Source: a virus
Taxonomy: Duplodnaviria > Caudoviricetes
DNA length: 29,759 nucleotides
IMG/VR virus record: IMGVR_UViG_3300032212_000708
Span: 1-29,759 of that record
Strand: one strand, 5' to 3'
The stretch's first letter is position 1; each line of letters opens with the position of its first letter. Below the pieces are notes generated by a model that worked only from the letters and a program-made list of their open reading frames with translations, did not search any database and had not been told where the DNA came from. The position numbers and the translations under genes were made by a program. This document shows, piece after piece, positions 7,391-27,789 of the stretch.

Positions 7391-9667
7391 TTAGCCCATA
7401 GGCAGCGGGGCAGAAGCTTCCGGAGCAGGGCCGGGCGGTGGAATCTGTAGCGGTTGCGGCGTGGCCGATGCAGGTGAAGGGGGCGGAGCTGGTGCGGGCA
7501 AGAGCGCATTGATGTTGTAGCCAGACTCCGCGAGCAATTCGTCTGCCATCGGGATTGCGGCGCGCTTTTGCAGCATTTCCATCGCGAGGGTCAGCGCGTC
7601 CTGCTGGGTCTTGATATTGTCCTGCGGCAGGCTCTTGAGGATGCGTTCAGCCTCTGCTTTGGTTTTGTCCGCGCGCGCAGTTTCGGCGGCGGCCTTGGCT
7701 TCGATGGTGGCCAGTTGGGCCTCGGCGGCACGTTCCTCCTTGGCTGCCTGCATTTTCTTTTGCTCTTGAAACGCGAGTTGCTCTGGGTCCGGGTTGTTGG
7801 GATCGGCGTCCGGGTCGGTCATGCCGGTCATTTGGCGGATGCGCTTGACGATTTCGTTCTTGGACGGGATGTCCATCGTCTCAATGACCAGATCGAGGAC
7901 AACCATGACGACCTGGGGTGCGGACGGTGCGAGTTGTTGCAGAAGATTTAATAATTCTTCGGTCTGTGACTGGCGCACGGTTGCGTTCCAGGCATCTTCC
8001 GAAATGATATAATCGGCCTTGGTTTTTGAAATATCGTTTTCGGGCAGGCCATCATTTATATCGATAAAATCGGGGCTGCCGCGGCTGTTGGTAATGCGGA
8101 AGCTTTTTTGCTTGGTCATGAACTGTTCGATCAGCGACAGCATCTTCTCGCCGTGGATCTGGCGGGCGAGCCTGAGATTGTCAAAGATCAGCGAAACCGA
8201 GAGCTGGCCCTGTTCCTGCCGCAGACCGATCGCCTTGCCGGATGTGGCATTGGTCGTACGGCCCAGAGCTTCGTCGGTTACGCCCGATGTCTGCTGAATC
8301 ATGCTGACGGTGCGCGAGAACATATCGAGATGCGCGCTGGCCAAGTCCCGATCTGCGGATATATCGAGTTGATAGCCTTTCTTTTTGACGATGACCGAGT
8401 TGGGTCGGGCCATTTCATCTTCAAAGGCGTCCAGGTCATCGACCGCGCCCGCGTCCATCACGACTTTGTTTGAGGACAGGATAGCCAGAGCCTTCGAGGC
8501 GCGCTTGTTGATGTCGTCCTGCATCCCTTTGAGACCGCGAATGACGCCATAGGGCTGCTTGTCGGCGGCACGCTGATAGCCCCAGATCGGGGTAAACGGA
8601 TATTTGTTGTGGCGATATGGCGACGGGCTGAACCAGAGCGCACCGGCTGACGTGAAAATAAGCACGTAGACGCGCATCGTAGTCACGGTGGCCACCTTGG
8701 CGCGGCCGGTTATGATGTCATCGAAATGCCCTAAGCTTTGTGGATCGTGGATCTCACCACTGAAGTCGCCACCGCGCAGGCGTTTCTCTGTTTTCGGAAT
8801 CTTGAACCACGCTTCGATCAGCCGGACCCGGCGGCGGTCTGATGTCGGGTTGATGAAGCGGTCGTGAGACTGGTTGGTAGTTTGCTCCTGACTATCCATC
8901 GCATCGTCGCCGTAGCCTTCGACTGACGCGGCGGTTTGAAAGCTATCCGCTGCCGCGAGTTCAATGATCTCTTTGCGATCTGGAAAGAAAGCATTGGCGG
9001 AATCGACATCGGACCATTTGACCCGAAACTGGTAGCGCGCGTCTTCAAGGTCCATTTCGGACGCGGTGCTGTCATGCAGGATGTTGCGCCAGCTTTCATG
9101 GCGGTCGTAAATCGGCTCGCCTTCGTCCTCGCTGCGAAAGCCGGACTCGATCCAGCCCAGCCCGGCCTTTACCGTCTCGGCATAGCTACGAGAAACAGAG
9201 AAGGTCGAACGGTTGGAGTCCTCCAGGTATTTCATCAGCTGCGTCTTGCGCTCTGCCGCCTGGCTGCCGTCCTTTCGACGCGGAAGTATCTTGGCCTCGA
9301 CCCGGCCACGCCGTTCAGCGCCCAGGATCCAGTTTACGGTCGTTGCCAGAACATTGTAGACCAGTGCTTCCTGGCCGCGCTCCGCAAGGACGGCCTCGTC
9401 CTCGGGCTTCCATTGGTCGTGATCGTAATAGGCTTCGTCCTCAGCCATTTTCAGGCGGTTGCTTGCTTGAATGTCGAGTTCAGCGAGATAGTGTCCCATC
9501 ATCAGATCGACGAAACGTCGCACTTCGGGCTTGTCGAGATCGCTTTGCGACGGGTTCGGCTGTTCCGGCGCAGGCATCGCATCGTCCTTGAGGGGCAATC
9601 CGGAGATCGAACTGTCGGTACTGGATGAGCGACGAAACTCTGCGCCCGCGTCGTATGTCTCAAACAT
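7391..9667 (-). CDS. Portal protein (P22-like podovirus type)
   Basis: 758 aa; YYDHDQW...L.ERGQ..LVYN, KAGLGW, YPFTPIWGY, PYGVIRGLKGMQDDINKR, SGKAIGLRQEQG motifs; C-terminal coiled coil. Confidence 0.92.
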   Translation of the reverse strand: MFETYDAGAEFRRSSSTDSSISGLPLKDDAMPAPEQPNPSQSDLDKPEVRRFVDLMMGHYLAELDIQASNRLKMAEDEAYYDHDQWKPEDEAVLAERGQEALVYNVLATTVNWILGAERRGRVEAKILPRRKDGSQAAERKTQLMKYLEDSNRSTFSVSRSYAETVKAGLGWIESGFRSEDEGEPIYDRHESWRNILHDSTASEMDLEDARYQFRVKWSDVDSANAFFPDRKEIIELAAADSFQTAASVEGYGDDAMDSQEQTTNQSHDRFINPTSDRRRVRLIEAWFKIPKTEKRLRGGDFSGEIHDPQSLGHFDDIITGRAKVATVTTMRVYVLIFTSAGALWFSPSPYRHNKYPFTPIWGYQRAADKQPYGVIRGLKGMQDDINKRASKALAILSSNKVVMDAGAVDDLDAFEDEMARPNSVIVKKKGYQLDISADRDLASAHLDMFSRTVSMIQQTSGVTDEALGRTTNATSGKAIGLRQEQGQLSVSLIFDNLRLARQIHGEKMLSLIEQFMTKQKSFRITNSRGSPDFIDINDGLPENDISKTKADYIISEDAWNATVRQSQTEELLNLLQQLAPSAPQVVMVVLDLVIETMDIPSKNEIVKRIRQMTGMTDPDADPNNPDPEQLAFQEQKKMQAAKEERAAEAQLATIEAKAAAETARADKTKAEAERILKSLPQDNIKTQQDALTLAMEMLQKRAAIPMADELLAESGYNINALLPAPAPPPSPASATPQPLQIPPPGPAPEASAPLPMG

Positions 9668-10115
9668 GATCAGTGACCTCTTTGTGCGTGGTTTTGCCGG
9701 TGTTGTGATCGTGGATTTCCATATGCGCTACGGACTTCCGGGTCTCTGGTGCGTGAGGCAGGGGTGGCATCTGCATCATCTCGTCGAGACAGTCGCGAAC
9801 AACGGCTGTGACGGCGATGAGCGTCGATGTGTCATGCGGACTGAACCCGAGGCAGGCCGCGAAGGCCGCGGAGGTTCTGGCGCAGTGCCGTGCGTCGCCG
9901 ACCTCTTCGGTCCAGATCCAGCCCTCACGGATTCGCACGACGCAGGGCGTGATGCGCTCGTGCGATGTCCGGACATGCGTCGGCACCAGCACGATGCAGG
10001 GCCTTCCGTCATCCCACGTCCATGTCAGGTGTGCGGTAATATCGCCGTAGCGGTAAATCTTCTGGTTGATGGTCAGGTCCAACAGTGGCTTTTGCGTGAT
10101 CCGATGGGGTTTCAT
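9660..10115 (-). CDS. Conserved phage hypothetical protein between terL and portal
   Basis: Start re-called at 10115 (MKPHRITQKPLLDL...): ATGA overlap with the terL stop and GGAGG RBS; 151 aa. Confidence 0.75.
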   Translation of the reverse strand: MKPHRITQKPLLDLTINQKIYRYGDITAHLTWTWDDGRPCIVLVPTHVRTSHERITPCVVRIREGWIWTEEVGDARHCARTSAAFAACLGFSPHDTSTLIAVTAVVRDCLDEMMQMPPLPHAPETRKSVAHMEIHDHNTGKTTHKEVTDHV

Positions 10116-11725
10116 GTGGTCATGCCTCCTTGGCGGCGCCGTCTTGGTCTCTGCTGGACCTGAATGAGTGCGGGATCGAAACCTTGCGCCCACTGCCGGA
10201 TGGCATCTGCGGCTTCGGTATCCTCGTTGTCCTTGTCCGGCTCGCTGCCCCAGTCGCCGAGGCGCGAATTCCATTTCTTCCGGTAATTCTGAAGGTGAAT
10301 GAGACCTTCCTTGGTCTTCTCCTCATCGAACCATGCGCTCGGCAACTTGGAGCGGGTCAATTCGATGCCGTGTTGAAGCACCTCGACGCGGGGCACGATA
10401 TGCCAGGCGAGATCGGGGGCGATCTCCTGAAGCATTTCCAGCGGCGAGGCGACGGTGTTGGCCATCTGGCGGACCTGCATTGCGTCGTGCGGCAGGAAAT
10501 TGCCGCCGAACACATAGCCCGTCTCGCGCATGAACCGGATGTAGTGATCGTAGCCCTTGGCCCAATCCTCGAAAAAGTTGATGAACCGGTGCTGAACCCC
10601 GACGTATTGATGAAACCAGACCGCCGTGCCGTCGCCAGAGCCGATGTCCCAGAATGTGTTGACACGGACCTGGGGCAGATGAGGCACAGTCGTAATGCGG
10701 CCTTGTACGCGCGCCAGGCTGATCTGGGACGCAAAGAACGTGCCTTCGGTTGACTTTTGCCAGCACTCATTCGGCGTTGATGGATATTCGCGCCACATCT
10801 TCTCGACGTCGCCGCTGAAATCCATGTCGCGCTTCTGGATGTAAAAGGCGCGCTGCTCGGCATCAATTTCGATGCCTGTCTCCGCCTCGATCTTTGCAAA
10901 ATATTCGTGCTCGCTTGGGCTTATGACGACATTTGTGGGGTCGGCGCGGTATTTGTCGTTGGCAAACCAGGGCACGAAGTAAAACAGATAGTCGGCGCGG
11001 GTGAGTGGGCGATTCAGTTCGTTGCGCGCCTGTGCTTTGGTCGCCAGCTTGTAGAATTCTCCGCTCTGGCCTTCGGAGGTGGATTCTATTATGGCGATGC
11101 CGCTTTCCGGAACGGCCGGCAGGCTGCCGGTGATGATCTCAAGCGCCTTTTCGGGAAATTTCGCGCCCAGCTTTCCCATTTCGGAAATGTGCAGCCGATG
11201 GATGGTGTCAGAGCGGACAGAGGTCGAGACGATGATCGAAGAGTTGTTGTGCGCGAACACGATCTCTTCGGCGCTCTCGATCTTTGTCGGGACGCGCGCG
11301 CGGATATCGGGCGGCAGGTTGTCGTAGGCCAGTTTGACCTTCTGGCGGAATATCTTTTTCGCGTCCTTGAGCGTGTGAGCGATGATAGCAACCGACTGGT
11401 TGGCGTTCCACAGCGCATGGTCGAGCCAGATGATTGCAATCAGGGTGGTGAAACCGAGCTGGCGGGCCTTGAGAATGATATTGCGGTTGCGCATCGACAT
11501 AAGAAATCGACGTTGGGCGCGGTTTGGCTTGAACGGGACGAGGGTGCCGGATGATCCGTCGTCATCTGGCTCGACGTCTTTGGTGATGATCTTGTAGAGC
11601 CGCCCGGAGAATATCCGCCACCGCCATGAGGCGAGACAGGCGACCAGTTCCGCCTCAGTCTCGGGAACGACCGATGGGTCGATGTCCGTTGGGTCCGTGC
11701 CGGTCAACGCGCGGTCATGCATCAT
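10112..11725 (-). CDS. terL: Terminase large subunit
   Basis: Walker A ILKARQLGFTT, Walker B LHISE, coupling motif IIESTSEG, nuclease FWDIGSGDGTAVWF, C-terminal AADAIR. Confidence 0.95.
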   Translation of the reverse strand: MMHDRALTGTDPTDIDPSVVPETEAELVACLASWRWRIFSGRLYKIITKDVEPDDDGSSGTLVPFKPNRAQRRFLMSMRNRNIILKARQLGFTTLIAIIWLDHALWNANQSVAIIAHTLKDAKKIFRQKVKLAYDNLPPDIRARVPTKIESAEEIVFAHNNSSIIVSTSVRSDTIHRLHISEMGKLGAKFPEKALEIITGSLPAVPESGIAIIESTSEGQSGEFYKLATKAQARNELNRPLTRADYLFYFVPWFANDKYRADPTNVVISPSEHEYFAKIEAETGIEIDAEQRAFYIQKRDMDFSGDVEKMWREYPSTPNECWQKSTEGTFFASQISLARVQGRITTVPHLPQVRVNTFWDIGSGDGTAVWFHQYVGVQHRFINFFEDWAKGYDHYIRFMRETGYVFGGNFLPHDAMQVRQMANTVASPLEMLQEIAPDLAWHIVPRVEVLQHGIELTRSKLPSAWFDEEKTKEGLIHLQNYRKKWNSRLGDWGSEPDKDNEDTEAADAIRQWAQGFDPALIQVQQRPRRRRQGGMTT

Positions 11726-14461: not shown

Positions 14462-14806
14462 TCATGGCGCGGCGTTCTTCTGGGTAAAGGCGCTGCCTTC
14501 GACAAAAGACCACGTCGGTAGCATCGAGCGCATGACGCTTGCGCCCCGAAACGAGGTCTGAACACGTTCGGTGATCGCACGCTCTCCGCGCTGATTTTTG
14601 GACCAAACGGTAAGCAATATATTCCCGAAAATATTCTGATCGTCCAAAATTGCGGATTCGAACTCAGCAAAGGTGGTGATATCCCGCAATTCGATAATGT
14701 CGAAACCGGAGCGCGAATTCGGAATTACGAAATGTGGAAGAAAGAATACTTGCACAATCAGTTTCGACTTTGGGTCGGTCGTTGGTTTCAGTTCTGGGTT
14801 GGTCAC
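14462..14806 (-). CDS. Hypothetical protein
   Basis: 114 aa; 4-nt overlap with the MT-A70 stop, GGAG upstream. Confidence 0.6.
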   Translation of the reverse strand: MTNPELKPTTDPKSKLIVQVFFLPHFVIPNSRSGFDIIELRDITTFAEFESAILDDQNIFGNILLTVWSKNQRGERAITERVQTSFRGASVMRSMLPTWSFVEGSAFTQKNAAP

Positions 14807-15528
14807 TTATCTATCTCCAGATTGAATTTTCCGGCTTCGTTTCCCCATGATGTCCAACCAGGCCGGTGTTCCCGGCTGAACAGGTCAATTCCGGTGCCGG
14901 TTGGCACCAGGCGTCGGGCCGTGGCGTAAGCCAGATCAGGCTTGCGGCTGTGTTCTCTGCGCCTCGCCTCAATCGTGAAGCCCAGCGAGCGGAGTGGATC
15001 TTGTTCGTGGAGCATTTCCGCGGCGCCGCCGCCAAAGTCGGAGAGGATCGATCGGATACTCCGTTCAGCGACCTTTACCCGCCCGCGGGTCGCAATCAGG
15101 ATCGGCTCATTGGCGGATCGGAAAATATAGCCACCGCCAAAACAGTTGGCGCCATGAACTGTTCGCTTCACCCAGGTGCCGGCCGTTTTGAAGGTAAACC
15201 CCCAAGCCTCGATCACTTCCAGCGCCTGTGGCAGCATCGGGTTTGTAGCCCAGAGCCAAAGCAGACAGTTTTTTCCCGCCAGCACATCGACCGGTAATGC
15301 CTTGATCCAGTCGAGCCCCTGACAATCGTAGTGGGCGGTAGGGCTGCGACCTGCTCCGTTCTCAGACCAGAGACCGAAGTTCCATGGCGGATCAGCCATG
15401 ATCAGGCGAGCGCCATTGTAGGGCCGTATTTTGGAGAACTCGACTGCGATGCGCGACATCTCGGGGTATGCAAGCTCTGAGGTTGCAGGCAGGTTCAACC
15501 GGCGCTCTGTTGGAGGAGACAGATTCAT
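14803..15528 (-). CDS. MT-A70 family adenine methyltransferase
   Basis: LIMADPPW catalytic motif, LLWLWATNPML, VIEAWGFTFKTAGTWVK, RREHSRKPD, IDLFSREHRPGWTSWGNE. Confidence 0.92.
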   Translation of the reverse strand: MNLSPPTERRLNLPATSELAYPEMSRIAVEFSKIRPYNGARLIMADPPWNFGLWSENGAGRSPTAHYDCQGLDWIKALPVDVLAGKNCLLWLWATNPMLPQALEVIEAWGFTFKTAGTWVKRTVHGANCFGGGYIFRSANEPILIATRGRVKVAERSIRSILSDFGGGAAEMLHEQDPLRSLGFTIEARRREHSRKPDLAYATARRLVPTGTGIDLFSREHRPGWTSWGNEAGKFNLEIDK

Positions 15529-17855: not shown

Positions 17856-18079
17856 TGGTGGCACGGATCTATACCCCGGGGCGGCAGATTTCAGACCCGC
17901 AGAAGGTTTTCGGCGCCATTCTCGCTGGCCAGCCGCTCTACTTCAATGACCGTGTGCAAGTCGCTGGCTGGAGCCAAAATTTTCGTATCGGAAATGTTGC
18001 GAAGATGGCGAAGTCCGGCCAGGTCCGCGAAGCGTTGGTGCGGTCTGAATCGTTCGCCGCGCCGGATGCGCCGGCATGA
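17855..18079 (+). CDS. Hypothetical protein
   Basis: Start re-called at 17855 (TGATG overlap; MVARIYTPGRQISDP...); 74 aa. Confidence 0.65.
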   Translation: MVARIYTPGRQISDPQKVFGAILAGQPLYFNDRVQVAGWSQNFRIGNVAKMAKSGQVREALVRSESFAAPDAPA

Positions 18080-18462
18080 TGCGGCAGCCAACGCCCCTCG
18101 CCGACCTGCTGCGCTGGCATACAGCCGCGCTCGCTGGCGAGGATGTCGACTGGAACGAGTACGAGCCACATTGTGGCTGGTATTTCCGGCGGCTGGTAAC
18201 TGGCGGACCAAAGATCCCGGTTCGCATCTGGATGTTGCAGGAAACCGACATCGATTCCGGCGAACTCACGGAACCCGAGGTTTTGCACGCCGAAAGCCTG
18301 GGCGAAGAACTCGACCCGGTGGAGATATGGTCGCGCTGCCGCCCGATCAGCCGGGACGCCTATGCAGGTCTTCTGGATACGCACAAATCCATTCCCGCGA
18401 TGAAAGACCTGCACAAACCCGTCGACCTTTCGACAACGCCAGTATCTCCCGGAGGAACCTAG
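18076..18462 (+). CDS. Conserved phage hypothetical protein
   Basis: 128 aa; EPHCGWYFRRLVTGGPKIPVRIW motif; coupled to neighbours. Confidence 0.75.
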   Translation: MMRQPTPLADLLRWHTAALAGEDVDWNEYEPHCGWYFRRLVTGGPKIPVRIWMLQETDIDSGELTEPEVLHAESLGEELDPVEIWSRCRPISRDAYAGLLDTHKSIPAMKDLHKPVDLSTTPVSPGGT

Positions 18463-19254
18463 ATGACAGACAACATTCCCGTGCCCGGTGAAGCCGCCAC
18501 GGCCATCGAAGACGCGCCAGCACCTATCGGCCACAACGAGCCGCCGGCATTCGACCCCGAAAAGGTCGAGGCATCCGAAAAACAGGCTACCGCGTTCATG
18601 GAGGCTGGCGCCAAATGGGTCGCGCTCGGAGAAATCAAGACCGAAGCTGACGCGGGCCTGCTAGTCGATTTCATCGCCGGGATCAGAGCCGCGAAATCCA
18701 AGGTCGAAAAACAGCGCAGGGCTGAAAAGAAGGTTCACGATGATCGCGGTAAAGAGGTCCAGAACGCTTTTCTACCGGTGCTGGACAAGTACGACCTGGC
18801 CGCAAGAAAGGTAATCCCTCTCCAAACCGCTTGGCTTGCAAAGATGGAAGCAAAGCGGCGTGAAGAGATCGCCAAAAAAGAAGCCGAAGCCGAGGCAGTG
18901 CGCATTGAGGCCGAGAACTCCCTGGCGCTGGCACAAGCACAGGGGAACATTGCAGCGGAAGCCGAGGCTGAAGCGGCAGTAAAAGCCGCAGATAAGGCCG
19001 ACAAGGCAGTGACGCGCCTGGCGAAGGCCCCGGTCAAGGTCGCGTCGGTAACTGGTGGCGCGCGTTCGATGTCAAACAGGGGACAGCGGAGTGCCAAGGT
19101 CATCAACCTGCGCGCGTTGTTCTTCCATTACGCCGATCATCCCGACGTCGAGGCTACGCTGGTCCGCCTGGCCAACGCCGATATCAGGGCCAAGGGCATC
19201 GACGAAACCAAAATCCCCGGAATTGAAATCGTAATAGCGGAGACGACAGTATGA
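18463..19254 (+). CDS. Coiled-coil protein of the phage recombination module
   Basis: 263 aa, GGAGG RBS; PIGHNEPP motif, long Ala/Glu/Lys coiled coil, C-terminal KIPGIEI. Confidence 0.7.
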   Translation: MTDNIPVPGEAATAIEDAPAPIGHNEPPAFDPEKVEASEKQATAFMEAGAKWVALGEIKTEADAGLLVDFIAGIRAAKSKVEKQRRAEKKVHDDRGKEVQNAFLPVLDKYDLAARKVIPLQTAWLAKMEAKRREEIAKKEAEAEAVRIEAENSLALAQAQGNIAAEAEAEAAVKAADKADKAVTRLAKAPVKVASVTGGARSMSNRGQRSAKVINLRALFFHYADHPDVEATLVRLANADIRAKGIDETKIPGIEIVIAETTV

Positions 19255-20447: not shown

Positions 20448-20824
20448 TCCAGAGGCGATCTCTCACGAAGCGGCAACGCATCCATGTTCTCGCCGCGCAC
20501 AAGAACGTCTGCCACCTGTGCGGCGAGATCATCAATCCTGTGCGCGAGGAATGGGAGGTCGAACACCCCATAGCGCTTGGGATCGGCGGTCGGGACGATC
20601 CGTCAAACTGGCGCCCGGTACACAAGGGCTGCCACCCGGAAAAGACCCGGCTGGATCGAAAGCTGATCGCGAAATGCAATCGGATCAGGGCCAAGGCAGA
20701 TGGCACCTATCGCCAGCCAAAGCGGCTCATCGCGGGTAGCAAGAACCACCGCCTGAAATCCCTGATGAGCGGCAAAGTTATTGAGCGCTCTACCGGGCGC
20801 GTGATCAAAGAAGCGAGGCGCTAA
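20444..20824 (+). CDS. HNH endonuclease
   Basis: CHLCG...WEVEHPIALGIGGRDDPSNWRPVHKGCH.EKT. Confidence 0.88.
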   Translation: MIQRRSLTKRQRIHVLAAHKNVCHLCGEIINPVREEWEVEHPIALGIGGRDDPSNWRPVHKGCHPEKTRLDRKLIAKCNRIRAKADGTYRQPKRLIAGSKNHRLKSLMSGKVIERSTGRVIKEARR

Positions 20825-20827
20825 GCC

Positions 20828-21946
20828 ATGGAATTCTCCGCAGGACAAAACGACGCCATCGGAAAAGCCGAAGCATGGCTGGAAACCGGCGGTGAGCAGG
20901 TGTTCCGGGTATTCGGCTATGCAGGTACGGGCAAAACCACAATCGCCTTGAAACTGACCGCTGAAGTCAAAGGCCGTGTCGTCTTTGGCGCATTTACCGG
21001 CAAGGCCGCAGCGGTCATGCGCAAAGCCGGGTGCGCCAACGCAACAACACTTCACAGCCTGATCTATATCCCGAGACTGGACAAGAAGACAGGCACGATC
21101 TCCTACGAGAAGAACCTCGACGGTCCGGTTGCCGAGGCGGCGCTGGTCGTCGTTGACGAATGCTCGATGGTGGATGAATCGCTTGCCGAGGATCTTCTAT
21201 CCTTCGGCGTGCCGGTCCTGGTGCTGGGCGACCCGGCGCAGCTGCCACCGCCAAAGGGCGCGGGGTATTTCACAAACGTCGAAGACCCGGACGTAATGCT
21301 GACCGAGATCCACCGTCAGGCCGAGAACAGCGCCATCATTCACATGGCGACAAAGGTACGGCAGGGCGAAGCCCTCGACTTCGGCGATTATGGCGTCTGC
21401 AAGGTGATTTCTCGCAACTCCATCGACCGGGACAGACTCAAACTTCTGGCAACTGGCGCCGATCAGGTTCTGGTCGGAACGAACAAGACCCGCGCCGGGT
21501 ACAATGGCTCCCTTCGCGCGGCCGCAGGGAAAAGCGGCGATTATCCGGAGGTTGGCGACCGGCTCGTTTGCCGCAAGAACGACCACGCGCTGGGGATCTA
21601 CAACGGCGGCAGCTTCATCGCTGGCGAACGCCTCAAGATCAAAAAGCACAGCCGTACCTGCGTTTCATTCAATGTCACGCCGATCGATACCGACAGCGAG
21701 ATCGTGATCCCGGTTCTGTGCCGCAAGGAATGCTTTGTCGGCGGCTACGAAGATTTGCATTGGCGAGAAACCCGCGGAACCAACAAGTTCGAGTTTGGCT
21801 ATGCCCTGACGGTTCACATGTCGCAGGGCAGCCAATGGGACGACGTGTTCATCAAGGACGAGAGTTTCGTGTTTGGCGAGAACCGAAACCGGCACCTTTA
21901 TACAGCAATCACACGGGCGGCGACGCGCGTGACGGTGGTGCGTTGA
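20828..21946 (+). CDS. RecD/Dda-like SF1B DNA helicase
   Basis: Walker A GYAGTGKTT, AFTGKAA, VVDECSMV, LGDPAQLPP, LTEIHRQA, YALTVHMSQGSQW, LYTAITRA. Confidence 0.93.
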   Translation: MEFSAGQNDAIGKAEAWLETGGEQVFRVFGYAGTGKTTIALKLTAEVKGRVVFGAFTGKAAAVMRKAGCANATTLHSLIYIPRLDKKTGTISYEKNLDGPVAEAALVVVDECSMVDESLAEDLLSFGVPVLVLGDPAQLPPPKGAGYFTNVEDPDVMLTEIHRQAENSAIIHMATKVRQGEALDFGDYGVCKVISRNSIDRDRLKLLATGADQVLVGTNKTRAGYNGSLRAAAGKSGDYPEVGDRLVCRKNDHALGIYNGGSFIAGERLKIKKHSRTCVSFNVTPIDTDSEIVIPVLCRKECFVGGYEDLHWRETRGTNKFEFGYALTVHMSQGSQWDDVFIKDESFVFGENRNRHLYTAITRAATRVTVVR

Positions 21947-22800
21947 TGGGCGACCCCGAAGAAGCCATCTATGCCGAAGCTGCGGCCCACGTCGTCAAGA
22001 CCGGCAACGCCTCTACCAGTGGTCTGCAACGCGCCCTGGGCGTGGGCTACAACCGCGCCGCCCGCCTGATCGAGAGAATGGAAGAAGTCGGGGTCGTGTC
22101 TGCCTCAGACAATACCGGCAAACGCGCGGTTCTGACGGTTCACCTTACCGGGCTTGACGAGTGGTTGTCATCGGGGAAGACCGGGGCATCTGCAAAATCC
22201 ATTGTCGCCCATCTGACACAAGAATTGGAACAAGACGGCAGCTATCCAATGGATGGCGGCGATTTCGCAAGATGCGAAGGCTTGCTCGACGCCGTACCAT
22301 CGCTGCGCACACGGCTGCCTGAAATGGCGTCGGTGAATGCATACTGGAGAGGTTTGGTCGAGGCCTGGGATGCGATCAGGGCCGCAACAGACAAAACGGC
22401 TATGATCAAGGGGGTTATTGCGCCGATCCAAGAGGCAGACCCCGGCCATGTGCCGATCACTCCGAATTCCCACATGCGGGTGGGACCGATCACATTTCAG
22501 GGTAAGCCAACGCAAGCCGCTGGGCCAACAGTAGGCCGGGGCCACAACTCCGCTAACAGCGACACATCCTACCGCGTCACCGCTGACGAGCTGCGTCAGT
22601 TCATCGAGCGGTTCGAGCGGCTGGAAGTCGAGAAACGCGACATCGCCGATGCTCAGAAAGAGTTGATGGCCGAGGCCAAGGGGCGCGGATACGACACGCA
22701 GGTGATGCGCAAGGTCATCGCCCTGCGCAAACGCGACCGCGATGACATCGCCGAGGAAGAGGCGGTGCTGGAAATGTACAAGGAGGCCCTTGGCATGTGA
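21946..22800 (+). CDS. Three-domain fusion: FtsK gamma domain + uncharacterised phage domain + GapR (DUF2312/UPF0335)
   Basis: Start re-called at 21946 (TGATG overlap), 284 aa. N-terminus ASTSGLQRALGVGYNRAARLIERMEEVGVVS is the FtsK-gamma winged helix. C-terminus VTADELRQFIERFERLE.EK.DIA...AEAKGRGYD...RKVIALRKRD...EEEAVLEMYKEALGM is DUF2312. Confidence 0.88.
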   Translation: MGDPEEAIYAEAAAHVVKTGNASTSGLQRALGVGYNRAARLIERMEEVGVVSASDNTGKRAVLTVHLTGLDEWLSSGKTGASAKSIVAHLTQELEQDGSYPMDGGDFARCEGLLDAVPSLRTRLPEMASVNAYWRGLVEAWDAIRAATDKTAMIKGVIAPIQEADPGHVPITPNSHMRVGPITFQGKPTQAAGPTVGRGHNSANSDTSYRVTADELRQFIERFERLEVEKRDIADAQKELMAEAKGRGYDTQVMRKVIALRKRDRDDIAEEEAVLEMYKEALGM

Positions 22801-23004
22801 TCCGGATGCAGCGGATGACCCCAGTAGGCGGTGGGTCGCAGTACCAAAAAAACACCTACAGCCGGGCATTGGCGAGACCCTTCCCGGCCTGACATCGGCG
22901 CGGCGGCGAAAAACGGAATGAGCCGGGCACGCTGCAACACAAGACAGTCAGGCCGTCCCAACGCCAGAGATTCAGACCGGCACTCAAACGCAAGGAGGCA
23001 AGCC

Positions 23005-23169
23005 ATGCCCAAATACCGAGTCAAGGTTGTGATCCAGAACGACAAATACCTGTTCGTCAACGCTCGCAACGAGGAGCAAGCCAAGAGCGATGCGCAATAC
23101 ATCGTCGAAAGCTGGCGTTCCAAACCCGAGGTTGTCGAAGTCGAGATCGACGAGGAATTGTCGCCATGA
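23005..23169 (+). CDS. Small protein, DpnD/PcfM-like pattern
   Basis: Start 23005 with AAGGAGG RBS; MPKYRVKVVIQNDKYLFVNARNEEQAK; 54 aa. Confidence 0.6.
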   Translation: MPKYRVKVVIQNDKYLFVNARNEEQAKSDAQYIVESWRSKPEVVEVEIDEELSP

Positions 23170-23723
23170 TCCCGCCCTATCCCCTGTTGTGGCCAGAGGG
23201 CCAGACTCGCTCGCGTCCTGTGAAATCGCAGTTTCGGACGGAACTGCCCGGCGCCATGAAGAACGTCGCGAAATCCCTGACTGACTTTGGATATGACAGT
23301 GGCAAAAAGGTCGAGGACGTGCAGATCACGTCGAATGCTTCCCTGACCAGCCAGAGGCCGGATGATTGCGGCATTGCGGTCTGGTTCAAATGGGCAGGGG
23401 CTATCCGTTGCATCGCAGTTGACCGCTACGACAAGATCGCCTGCAACCTGCAAGCCGTCCATCACTGCATCGAAGCCGATCGGACCAAACTCCGGCACGG
23501 CGGCATCCATATGGTCAGCGCACAACTGCGCGCCCATGCGGCGCTGCCCGCCCCAACGCAAGGTCCAGGCTGCTGGACTGTTTTGGGCATAACGCCGGGC
23601 GCGACGGAAGACGAAATCAAAGCCGCCTACCGCCGCAAGATCCGCGAGACGGCCAACGAGGATGACCGGATGCCATTCAATGTGGCGAGGGATCAAGCCA
23701 TCAAGGAGATCACAAATGTCTGA
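23166..23723 (+). CDS. Phage J-domain-like protein (HPD motif absent)
   Basis: YPLLWPEGQTR, DCGIAVWF, CIAVDRY...NLQAVHHCIEA N-terminal domain plus C-terminal WTVLGITPGATEDEIKAAYRR DnaJ helices; no HPD. Confidence 0.8.
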   Translation: MIPPYPLLWPEGQTRSRPVKSQFRTELPGAMKNVAKSLTDFGYDSGKKVEDVQITSNASLTSQRPDDCGIAVWFKWAGAIRCIAVDRYDKIACNLQAVHHCIEADRTKLRHGGIHMVSAQLRAHAALPAPTQGPGCWTVLGITPGATEDEIKAAYRRKIRETANEDDRMPFNVARDQAIKEITNV

Positions 23724-26940: not shown

Positions 26941-27789
26941 ATGGCTGATCCTTCCCGTCCTGTCCTTCGTTGGCATGGGGGCAAATGGATTCTTGCGCCG
27001 TGGATTATCGAACATTTTCCGCCTCATAAGTGCTACGTCGAGCCTTATGGCGGTGGGGCATCCGTTCTTCTCCGCAAATCGCGTGCAAAACTAGATGTTT
27101 ACAATGATCTGGATGGTGCTGTTGTCACACTTTTTAAAGTGCTGCGCGACCGGCCGGATGAATTAATCAACCAGGTCGAATTAACACCATTCTCGCGCTT
27201 CGAGTTTGACCGGGCACAGGATTTCAATCTGCCGGCCGGGGATGAAATTGATATGTGTATGCGGCTGTTGGTCCGCTCACATATGGGGTTTTCGACTGCC
27301 GGGACTTGTGGCCGGGGCAACCGCGAAAAGACGGGATTTCGAGCGCGAGGCATTCGTGCCGGCACTACTCCTCCGGAGAATTGGCGACGTTTCCCGCCGG
27401 TACTAGCCCAGGTGGCGGAACGGATGCGCGGGGTGAATATCGAGTGCAAACCCGCGCTTGATCTGATCGAAGCGCATGATGATCCGCAAACCTTGTTCTA
27501 TCTCGATCCGCCATATCTTCCCGAGACGCGCGACGAACGGGCAGACTATAATCACGAGATGACCGCTGATGACCATCAAGCGCTTCTCGATCGGATTGTT
27601 CAGCTAAAGGGAAAGGTCGTTCTGTCAGGTTATGCGTCGAAGATGTATGATACAAATCTGCGCGAATGGTACCGGTTTGAGCGCGACACCCACGCTGAGG
27701 GTGCGCGAAAGCGGATTGAGGTACTTTTGACCAACTTTGATACTGCCGCAGCACCGCCACCAGGTGGGCTGTTTGAAAGCTGTGGTTAA
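26941..27789 (+). CDS. DNA adenine methyltransferase (Dam/D12 family)
   Basis: LRWHGGKW, YVEPYGGGASVL, YNDLDG, LFYLDPPY, VVLSGY; AAGGAGG RBS. Confidence 0.93.
   Translation: MADPSRPVLRWHGGKWILAPWIIEHFPPHKCYVEPYGGGASVLLRKSRAKLDVYNDLDGAVVTLFKVLRDRPDELINQVELTPFSRFEFDRAQDFNLPAGDEIDMCMRLLVRSHMGFSTAGTCGRGNREKTGFRARGIRAGTTPPENWRRFPPVLAQVAERMRGVNIECKPALDLIEAHDDPQTLFYLDPPYLPETRDERADYNHEMTADDHQALLDRIVQLKGKVVLSGYASKMYDTNLREWYRFERDTHAEGARKRIEVLLTNFDTAAAPPPGGLFESCG

Follow-up and report, generated by a model that had tools for sequence, protein, structure and literature searches.

A phage fusion of an FtsK gamma domain, a middle domain, and a host-like GapR belongs to a recurrent, modular family

Introduction

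GapR (UPF0335 or DUF2312; PF10073), typified by Caulobacter CCNA_03428 and represented by the structures PDB 6CG8, 6JYK, 6OZX, and 6CFX, is a DNA-binding protein for which K59 and R65/K66 are needed in Caulobacter, their loss weakening the binding (PMC7373187). Its behavior on overtwisted and AT-rich DNA has been described, and there is continuing debate about how it affects topoisomerases and transcription (PMC13408042). Phages encode GapR-fold DNA-binding proteins too, including T4 DsbA, a GapR homologue with a proposed role in late transcription (PMC7824862), and GapR-type proteins of Rhodobacter phages are labelled ‘DsbA-like protein’. Whereas DsbA and the stand-alone phage GapRs are single-domain proteins, the gene considered here fuses GapR to two further domains, an FtsK gamma domain and a middle domain (M). 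It lies in a viral stretch of 29,759 nucleotides (Duplodnaviria; Caudoviricetes), positions 1 to 29,759 of IMG/VR record IMGVR_UViG_3300032212_000708, hereafter the window.

The gamma domain of FtsK (PF09397) uses one surface to bind both the FtsK orienting polar sequences (KOPS) and XerD, with three gamma domains per KOPS, and gamma alone activates XerD, for which a 9-residue stretch is enough (PMC5052618). Phage FtsK-like proteins have already been published (PMC3706429), and gamma is a mobile phage module, as exemplified by the small terminase of Bacillus phages Sam46 and Sam112, in a paper that states the role of phage gamma genes as unknown (PMC8190038). The window fusion differs from these in having neither motor nor terminase, in having the GapR clamp as partner, and in belonging to a family in which gamma has repeatedly been gained or lost. 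A functional analogy, although between unrelated folds, is offered by H-NST, Sfh, and T7 gp5.5, mobile-element relatives or binders of a host nucleoid protein that form mixed oligomers (PMC6606824); in the window protein, the GapR domain is intact and comes with cargo domains. No publication on GapR-gamma or M-GapR fusions was found in a literature search that had subscription papers mostly, and supplements wholly, outside its reach.

The fusion gene and its GapR domain

The gene (P0001; 21946..22800, plus strand) runs without interruption from the ATG at 21946 to the TGA at 22800 and encodes 284 residues, in which the three domains and the linker named in the original prediction can all be read. 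An FtsK-gamma winged helix occupies residues 5-64 (21958..22137, plus strand; Pfam FtsK_gamma, PF09397, E 1.2e-22, 79.8 bits against a cut-off of 30.6). It is followed by M, about residues 66-186 (22141..22503, plus strand), which is supported by an AlphaFold2 model and conservation, resembles phrog_1229 and phrog_15291, and contains the expected motifs, and then by a linker (22504..22569, plus strand) that is predicted to be disordered from a dip in the predicted local distance difference test (pLDDT) score of the M-GapR model and carries GHNS at about 22540-22551. The GapR/DUF2312 domain takes up residues 209-284 (22570..22797, plus strand), residues 212-283 covering the whole Pfam GapR_DNA-bd model (1-72 of 72; E 2.6e-30, 104.3 bits, cut-off 22.6). 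PHROG 4212 matches the fusion in three stretches that cover M and GapR (E 1.4e-93), and M alone matches phrog_4212 (E 2.6e-44), phrog_1229 (E 4e-17), and phrog_15291 (E 5.9e-17).

The three-domain fusion is a real gene. A frameshift or assembly artefact, which the original prediction had asked to be checked, is not indicated, since a sequencing contig of depth 14.8 covers 20500-22772 without difference or gap (its run, X1, is possibly the window's own source and hence not independent) and since the same gamma-M-GapR order is found in 12 other proteins of the best 120 homologues. Separately, the window's contig in X1 breaks at 22743-22772 and the same sample holds other gapR alleles; 13 other contigs of this run partly cover 22400-22900 at a likeness of at least 80%, those listed falling on the GapR part.

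By profile and residues, the fusion is a member of the GapR family, yet it is neither a stand-alone chromosomal GapR nor an FtsK. It shares with the former a full-length domain, the predicted helices, and the oligomer and most DNA residues, reaching 100.1 with PRK13694 (cut-off 94) and 76.4 bits with the Caulobacter stand-alone equivalog NF052541, under its cut-off of 140; it differs in being phage-borne, in about 208 extra N-terminal residues forming two domains, and in a K56-to-Q change. In Caulobacter numbering, taken from PMC7498317, all six salt-bridge residues of the dimer and tetramer (R26/E47, E28/R65, and E31/K66) are kept together with D68 and Y82, as are six of the eight basic residues that contact DNA (K34, K42, K49, K56, K59, K60, R63, and K66). 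Among them, K59, R65, and K66, those needed in Caulobacter, correspond to R255, R261, and K262 of the fusion, and the R63 position is A here as well as in all five host core genes checked. That this domain is host-like, as had been proposed, is borne out by a comparison with 37 chromosomal GapRs, the nearest of which is 92% identical to it. As for FtsK, its motor and membrane domain are not matched in the fusion, and gamma alone matches (NF007615, 40.1 bits versus 1566).

Extra GapR copies resemble the GapR of their own host

A resemblance between the fused GapR domain and the GapR of the host was first seen in five lysogen genomes. The comparison was extended to GapR loci from 32 of 37 multi-copy Rhodobacteraceae genomes and five others. 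Their flanks set 31 loci, which make up a single syntenic core cluster, against the rest; a truncated copy and a broken fragment were excluded. Thirty-three of the 37 extra copies in core-bearing genomes share 60% identity or more with at least one core, and are called host-like here. For 28 of these 33, the core of the own host is the best of the 31, ties allowed (29/37 unfiltered; 33/38 with six hand-assigned cores added), and the M-fused copies rank their own host first in seven of nine cases. Mean protein identity of the extra GapRs is 0.893 to the own host and 0.755 to others, a value that none of 10,000 permutations attained. Synonymous codon identity is 0.66 with the own host and 0.59 with others, and here the own host comes first for only 5 of 33 copies. 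Between 12 fused copies and their own host genes, the proportion of nonsynonymous differences (pN) is 0.017-0.157 and that of synonymous differences (pS) 0.23-0.90, the lowest pS belonging to L149, one of the few own-host pairs with low synonymous divergence. Low pN with high pS indicates that the fused GapR is neither a fresh copy nor a misassembly. On these sequence comparisons, prophage GapR domains closely match the GapR of the resident host under purifying selection.

The history behind this match can be narrowed by phylogeny. In a tree of 12 fused and 11 core copies, most fused copies stand beside their own host gene, and a single fused clade is rejected by the approximately unbiased (AU) test (p-AU 1e-48), whose grouping was chosen after a larger tree had been inspected. 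A tree of 75 rows (six divergent rows left out) calls for 29 changes between extra and core, at least 21 of them forced by starred branches. Had GapR been captured once, in the distant past, and then co-diverged, the phage copies would have stayed together; their scatter presumably calls for repeated capture, gene conversion, or convergence, and thereafter for selection to stay host-like.

M and GapR form the constant unit of the family

The homologue search returned 317 proteins, and domains were mapped on the best 120, the query among them, to which the following counts apply. M-GapR is the most frequent architecture (69), followed by M-gamma-GapR (32), gamma-M-GapR (13), and gamma-GapR (6). 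Thus M and GapR are both found in 114 of 120 proteins and all three domains in 45, so that the rarity first assumed for the triple architecture is not supported; neither is a role of gamma as the functional core, since 69 lack it. The constant partner of GapR is M, which had been overlooked, and as far as sequences tell, the constant unit of the family is M+GapR. The PHROG 4212 profile likewise spans M (positions 9-128) and GapR (277-352). Ruegeria phage 45A6 ANH49054.1, which has the three domains in the order M-gamma-GapR, is labelled ‘cell division protein FtsK’ in GenBank, wrongly in the lack of a motor; compared with it and PHROG 4212, the window protein places gamma first and lacks a segment found behind gamma in many relatives. 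In Rhodobacter capsulatus phages RcSwan (L082:5974-7299) and RcFrancesLouise (L083:4698-6023), the form is gamma-gamma-GapR with a tail, and an AAA ATPase gene lies downstream.

In a FastTree phylogeny of 125 M domains, weakly resolved for its few columns, gamma-bearing forms are scattered, with 19 changes for M-gamma-GapR (at least 7 forced) and 6 for gamma-M-GapR (at least 3 forced). Gamma accordingly appears from sequence to be an optional module that is repeatedly gained or lost, and the window gene represents one of the domain orders within a known, uncharacterised family. In three fusions the order is reversed, GapR-M, and on the M tree these three group together, separately from the M-GapR forms, which suggests that this order arose by a second, independent fusion. 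At L103:9720-10345, gapR and M are unfused, immediately adjacent genes, gapR first, beside a NinB gene, and such guilt by association would tie M to GapR. Named cellular M-GapR records come from Rhodobacteraceae-type genera, for example, Leisingera, Roseivivax, Cypionkella, and Roseinatronobacter, and in 401 Rhodobacteraceae genomes searched, M was found in 5 and GapR, mostly in single copy, in 380. The leader before GapR is MKxDP-like in 44 of the 120 proteins, MK[EN]T-like in 32, GHN in 29, and other in 15; leader types are common across hosts, whereas the GapR core follows the host. A further observation concerns two GapR-M fusions, P0174 (residues 193-204) and P0186 (residues 310-320), in which an acidic/IP/L-R stretch resembles the C-terminal end of the host FtsZ (L214 and L215) and is a possible FtsZ-tail mimic; with a loose pattern, it was found in two of 266 proteins scanned, the window protein not being one of them.

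The AlphaFold2 model of M is confident (pLDDT 90.1; predicted template modeling score, pTM, 0.83) and shows a helical domain with a terminal beta hairpin. Its conserved motif is P-x-D-x-x-D-F-x-R-C, and W73, G80, S82, P101, D103, D106, R109, C110, P118, W134, and W141 are near-invariant. A profile search yielded 3,289 clusters at E 0.001, and M mostly makes up a whole protein, 95 of its 146 new representatives having no more than 160 residues; some proteins, such as P0155, P0160, and P0244, have M tandemly duplicated. M occurs in 233 phage records, including HK022, in which it is the stand-alone gp32 and sits in the early accessory region beside xis, and on 134 plasmid records, 110 of them from Pseudomonas. 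Profile and structure searches found no named family, Pfam, or PDB relative; the structure matches are four uncharacterised phage-type entries and a Sylvanvirus (giant-virus) protein, and the modelled fold is possibly new. A weak feature lead toward the N-terminal SAM-like domain of tyrosine recombinases (Phage_int_SAM_1) gave an hhalign probability of 3.9% against a 9-sequence Xer profile. When 59 M representatives, mostly longer ones, were scanned for curated partners, only GapR (four, two of them with a helix-turn-helix domain) and gamma (one) emerged, and three of the four GapR-partnered ones have the order GapR-M.

The gamma domain

The window gamma matches PDB 2j5o, 2ve8, and 2j5p with E values of about 1e-10 to 1e-11 and is 46-54% identical to five Rhodobacteraceae FtsK gammas. 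Its Q28, R29, G34, and N36 align with Q1288, R1289, G1294, and N1296 of E. coli, residues of the helix 2-3 surface to which both KOPS and XerD binding are assigned (PMC5052618). The position of R1292 is G in the window protein and A or G in the five host FtsKs, and the equivalents of Q1288, R1289, and N1296 vary little or not at all across 51 phage gammas. Given that phage gammas are only 38-67% identical to the best of the five host gammas, whereas the hosts are 75-98% identical among themselves, gamma lacks the host tracking seen for GapR.

The KOPS motif GGGNAGGG is present in the window four times, with 3.98 expected; one copy is at 22878-22885 (minus strand), 78 nt past the fusion stop. 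In dereplicated loci, the observed-to-expected ratio is 2.09 for those with gamma (12), 1.19 for M-GapR (12), and 1.48 for GapR alone (22), a weak trend (p 0.10). PMC7901474 mentions FtsK, KOPS, and dif in Dinoroseobacter, and the parts of it that mention them give no KOPS motif.

Gene neighborhood

The window represents a temperate phage of the P22-portal type, with portal, terminase, and capsid genes, a tyrosine integrase, and a match to a P22-like internal virion protein. Immediately upstream of the fusion lies a Dda-like superfamily 1 helicase (20828..21946, plus strand; phrog_325, E 2.2e-91), the stop of which shares TGATG at 21944-21948 with the start of the fusion. Beyond this overlap, a general link to the helicase is not supported: in the 26 fusion loci compared, some of which are related (44 of 61 picked neighbors scanned), a Dda-like helicase is upstream in two, RecT in four, and an HTH_36 initiator-like gene in five, and DUF1064 is downstream in eight. 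The usual home of the fusion gene is a replication/recombination module, with or without the helicase, which is context rather than a conserved partner.

Several other genes of the window deserve mention. The gene at 18463-19254 (plus strand; phrog_10477, ‘exonuclease’) has a GHN motif near its N-terminus as well, and together with that at 18076-18462 recurs as a pair near GapR genes at L003, L004, L008, L009, L018, L062, L108, L109, L115, and other loci. Three genes are methyltransferase-like (14803-15528, minus; 26941-27789, plus; 9660-10274, minus), with matches to MT-A70, a D12-class adenine methylase, and phrog_10057, and a phage protein encoded at 23166-23723 (plus strand; phrog_9210) has a weak C-terminal match to the DnaJ J-domain. 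At the contig end, 28488-29759 (minus strand) encodes the tyrosine integrase with an N-terminal DUF6538, relatives of which, 49-56% identical, lie 2-5 kb downstream of GapR genes at L009, L062, L108, and L109.

What the fusion may do

The explanation that we favor, tentatively and as somewhat short of probable, is that in temperate Rhodobacteraceae phages the host-matched GapR domain serves as a hitchhiking adaptor, joining the tetramers of host GapR and thereby carrying M, and optionally gamma, onto DNA. The fused domain would co-assemble with host GapR into mixed DNA-encircling tetramers, which would load ahead of forks where DNA is overtwisted or AT-rich, as reported for Caulobacter GapR, and present M there. 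Gamma, where it is found, may act as a multivalent grip adding avidity or KOPS-like specificity, since one tetramer could display several gamma domains, and the net outcome would be a gain for phage replication or recombination. This explanation draws on the host tracking, the low pN, the fused copies that do not form a clade, the kept surfaces, the M+GapR pairing, the replication/recombination context, and the kept gamma residues. Co-assembly with host GapR, already part of the original prediction, thus holds as a plausible mechanism, for which the host tracking may count as indirect support.

It should be noted that several observations weigh against this explanation. The K56 position is Q in the window copy, compared with K or R in 112 of the 120 homologues. 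Five of the 33 host-like copies miss rank 1, and two M-fused ones, L148 and L143, rank their own host ninth and seventh. Distances between M domains also correlate with those between hosts (Mantel rho 0.49, p 0.009, n 9), if less strongly than GapR distances do (rho 0.72, p 0.0004, n 9), which means that host-restricted phage lineages account for part of the tracking signal. Among the extra copies that are not fused, some may have arisen by duplication on the chromosome and not belong to a prophage, neighbors having been used to check prophage status mainly for the fused ones. The tracking comes from relatives with known hosts, the host of the window phage itself being likely one of the Rhodobacteraceae. 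M is mostly stand-alone and occurs in phages of Escherichia, Vibrio, and Arthrobacter, so that it can work without a fused GapR. Finally, host tracking could fit equally well a homotetramer that needs a host partner, or recurrent recombination with the host gene.

A broader form of the adaptor explanation, which is possible but doubtful, takes GapR for a hitchhiking platform in general: temperate phages of alphaproteobacteria would repeatedly re-acquire or re-tune a host-matched GapR, place it in the GapR rings of the host, and deliver interchangeable cargo (M, gamma KOPS readers, and FtsZ-tail-like peptides) to the overtwisted DNA of forks, coupling or uncoupling replication, segregation, and division of the host.

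The same entry into host GapR tetramers might instead poison or sequester them, with gamma occluding KOPS or XerD, so that replication, segregation, and division of the host would stall. Such a mimic fits the host tracking equally well, mobile-element H-NS homologues do modulate a host nucleoid-associated protein via heterodimers (PMC6606824), cells of Caulobacter lengthen in GapR DNA-binding mutants (PMC7373187), and two of the reverse-order relatives carry the FtsZ C-terminal-like stretch. Host takeover is nevertheless unlikely, as purifying selection has maintained the DNA-binding residues, unlike those of a truncated dominant negative, gamma is missing from more than half of the best homologues and is only 45-65% identical to the gamma of host FtsK, and the FtsZ-like stretch is confined to those two proteins, the window protein being without it.

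Comparably unlikely is that the fusion is a self-sufficient extra GapR, forming homotetramers that relieve positive supercoils on phage DNA and staying host-like through its fit to a host partner (gyrase or topo IV) or through recombinational replacement, with M and gamma as loose extras. GapR is alone in most of 80 viral loci, T4 DsbA provides a precedent (PMC7824862), and the gene context of replication and recombination would suit such a role, as would the low pS in a few own-host pairs (0.23 in L149), which recent replacement would give. What it leaves unexplained is that M is fused to GapR in both orders and adjacent to it when unfused; moreover, a domain about 90% identical to the abundant host GapR, with its interfaces intact, could hardly be kept from mixing with it.

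If M is an independent counter-defense or host-interaction module that is fused merely to save space or raise its local concentration, its recurrent association with GapR is unaccounted for, too. A small and mostly stand-alone domain that is spread over phage and plasmid records, a giant-virus protein, and the early accessory region of HK022 is what such a module might look like, but profile and structure searches found no likeness to named counter-defense proteins, and we regard this as quite improbable. Slighter still is the chance that the clamp delivers gamma to host XerCD for the phage to resolve its own multimers, or recombine at dif-like sites, independently of the FtsK motor at the septum. 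Gamma, although sufficient to activate XerD and near-invariant at the equivalents of Q1288, R1289, and N1296, is optional, the phage carries its own tyrosine integrase, and the same residues bind KOPS, so that their conservation does not single out XerD.

Significance

The fusion family is uncharacterised, recurrent, and modular, and host tracking is the main new result. About 90% identity to the GapR of the own host, with drifting synonymous sites, points to a host-specific contact under selection, which the natural host/phage pairs make testable by swaps. While the architecture alone is less rare than first thought, the M-GapR pairing and the host tracking are the parts that could surprise specialists. 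The fusion also opens a way to study M, with its more than 3,000 clusters among phages and plasmids, and the role of phage FtsK-gamma domains.
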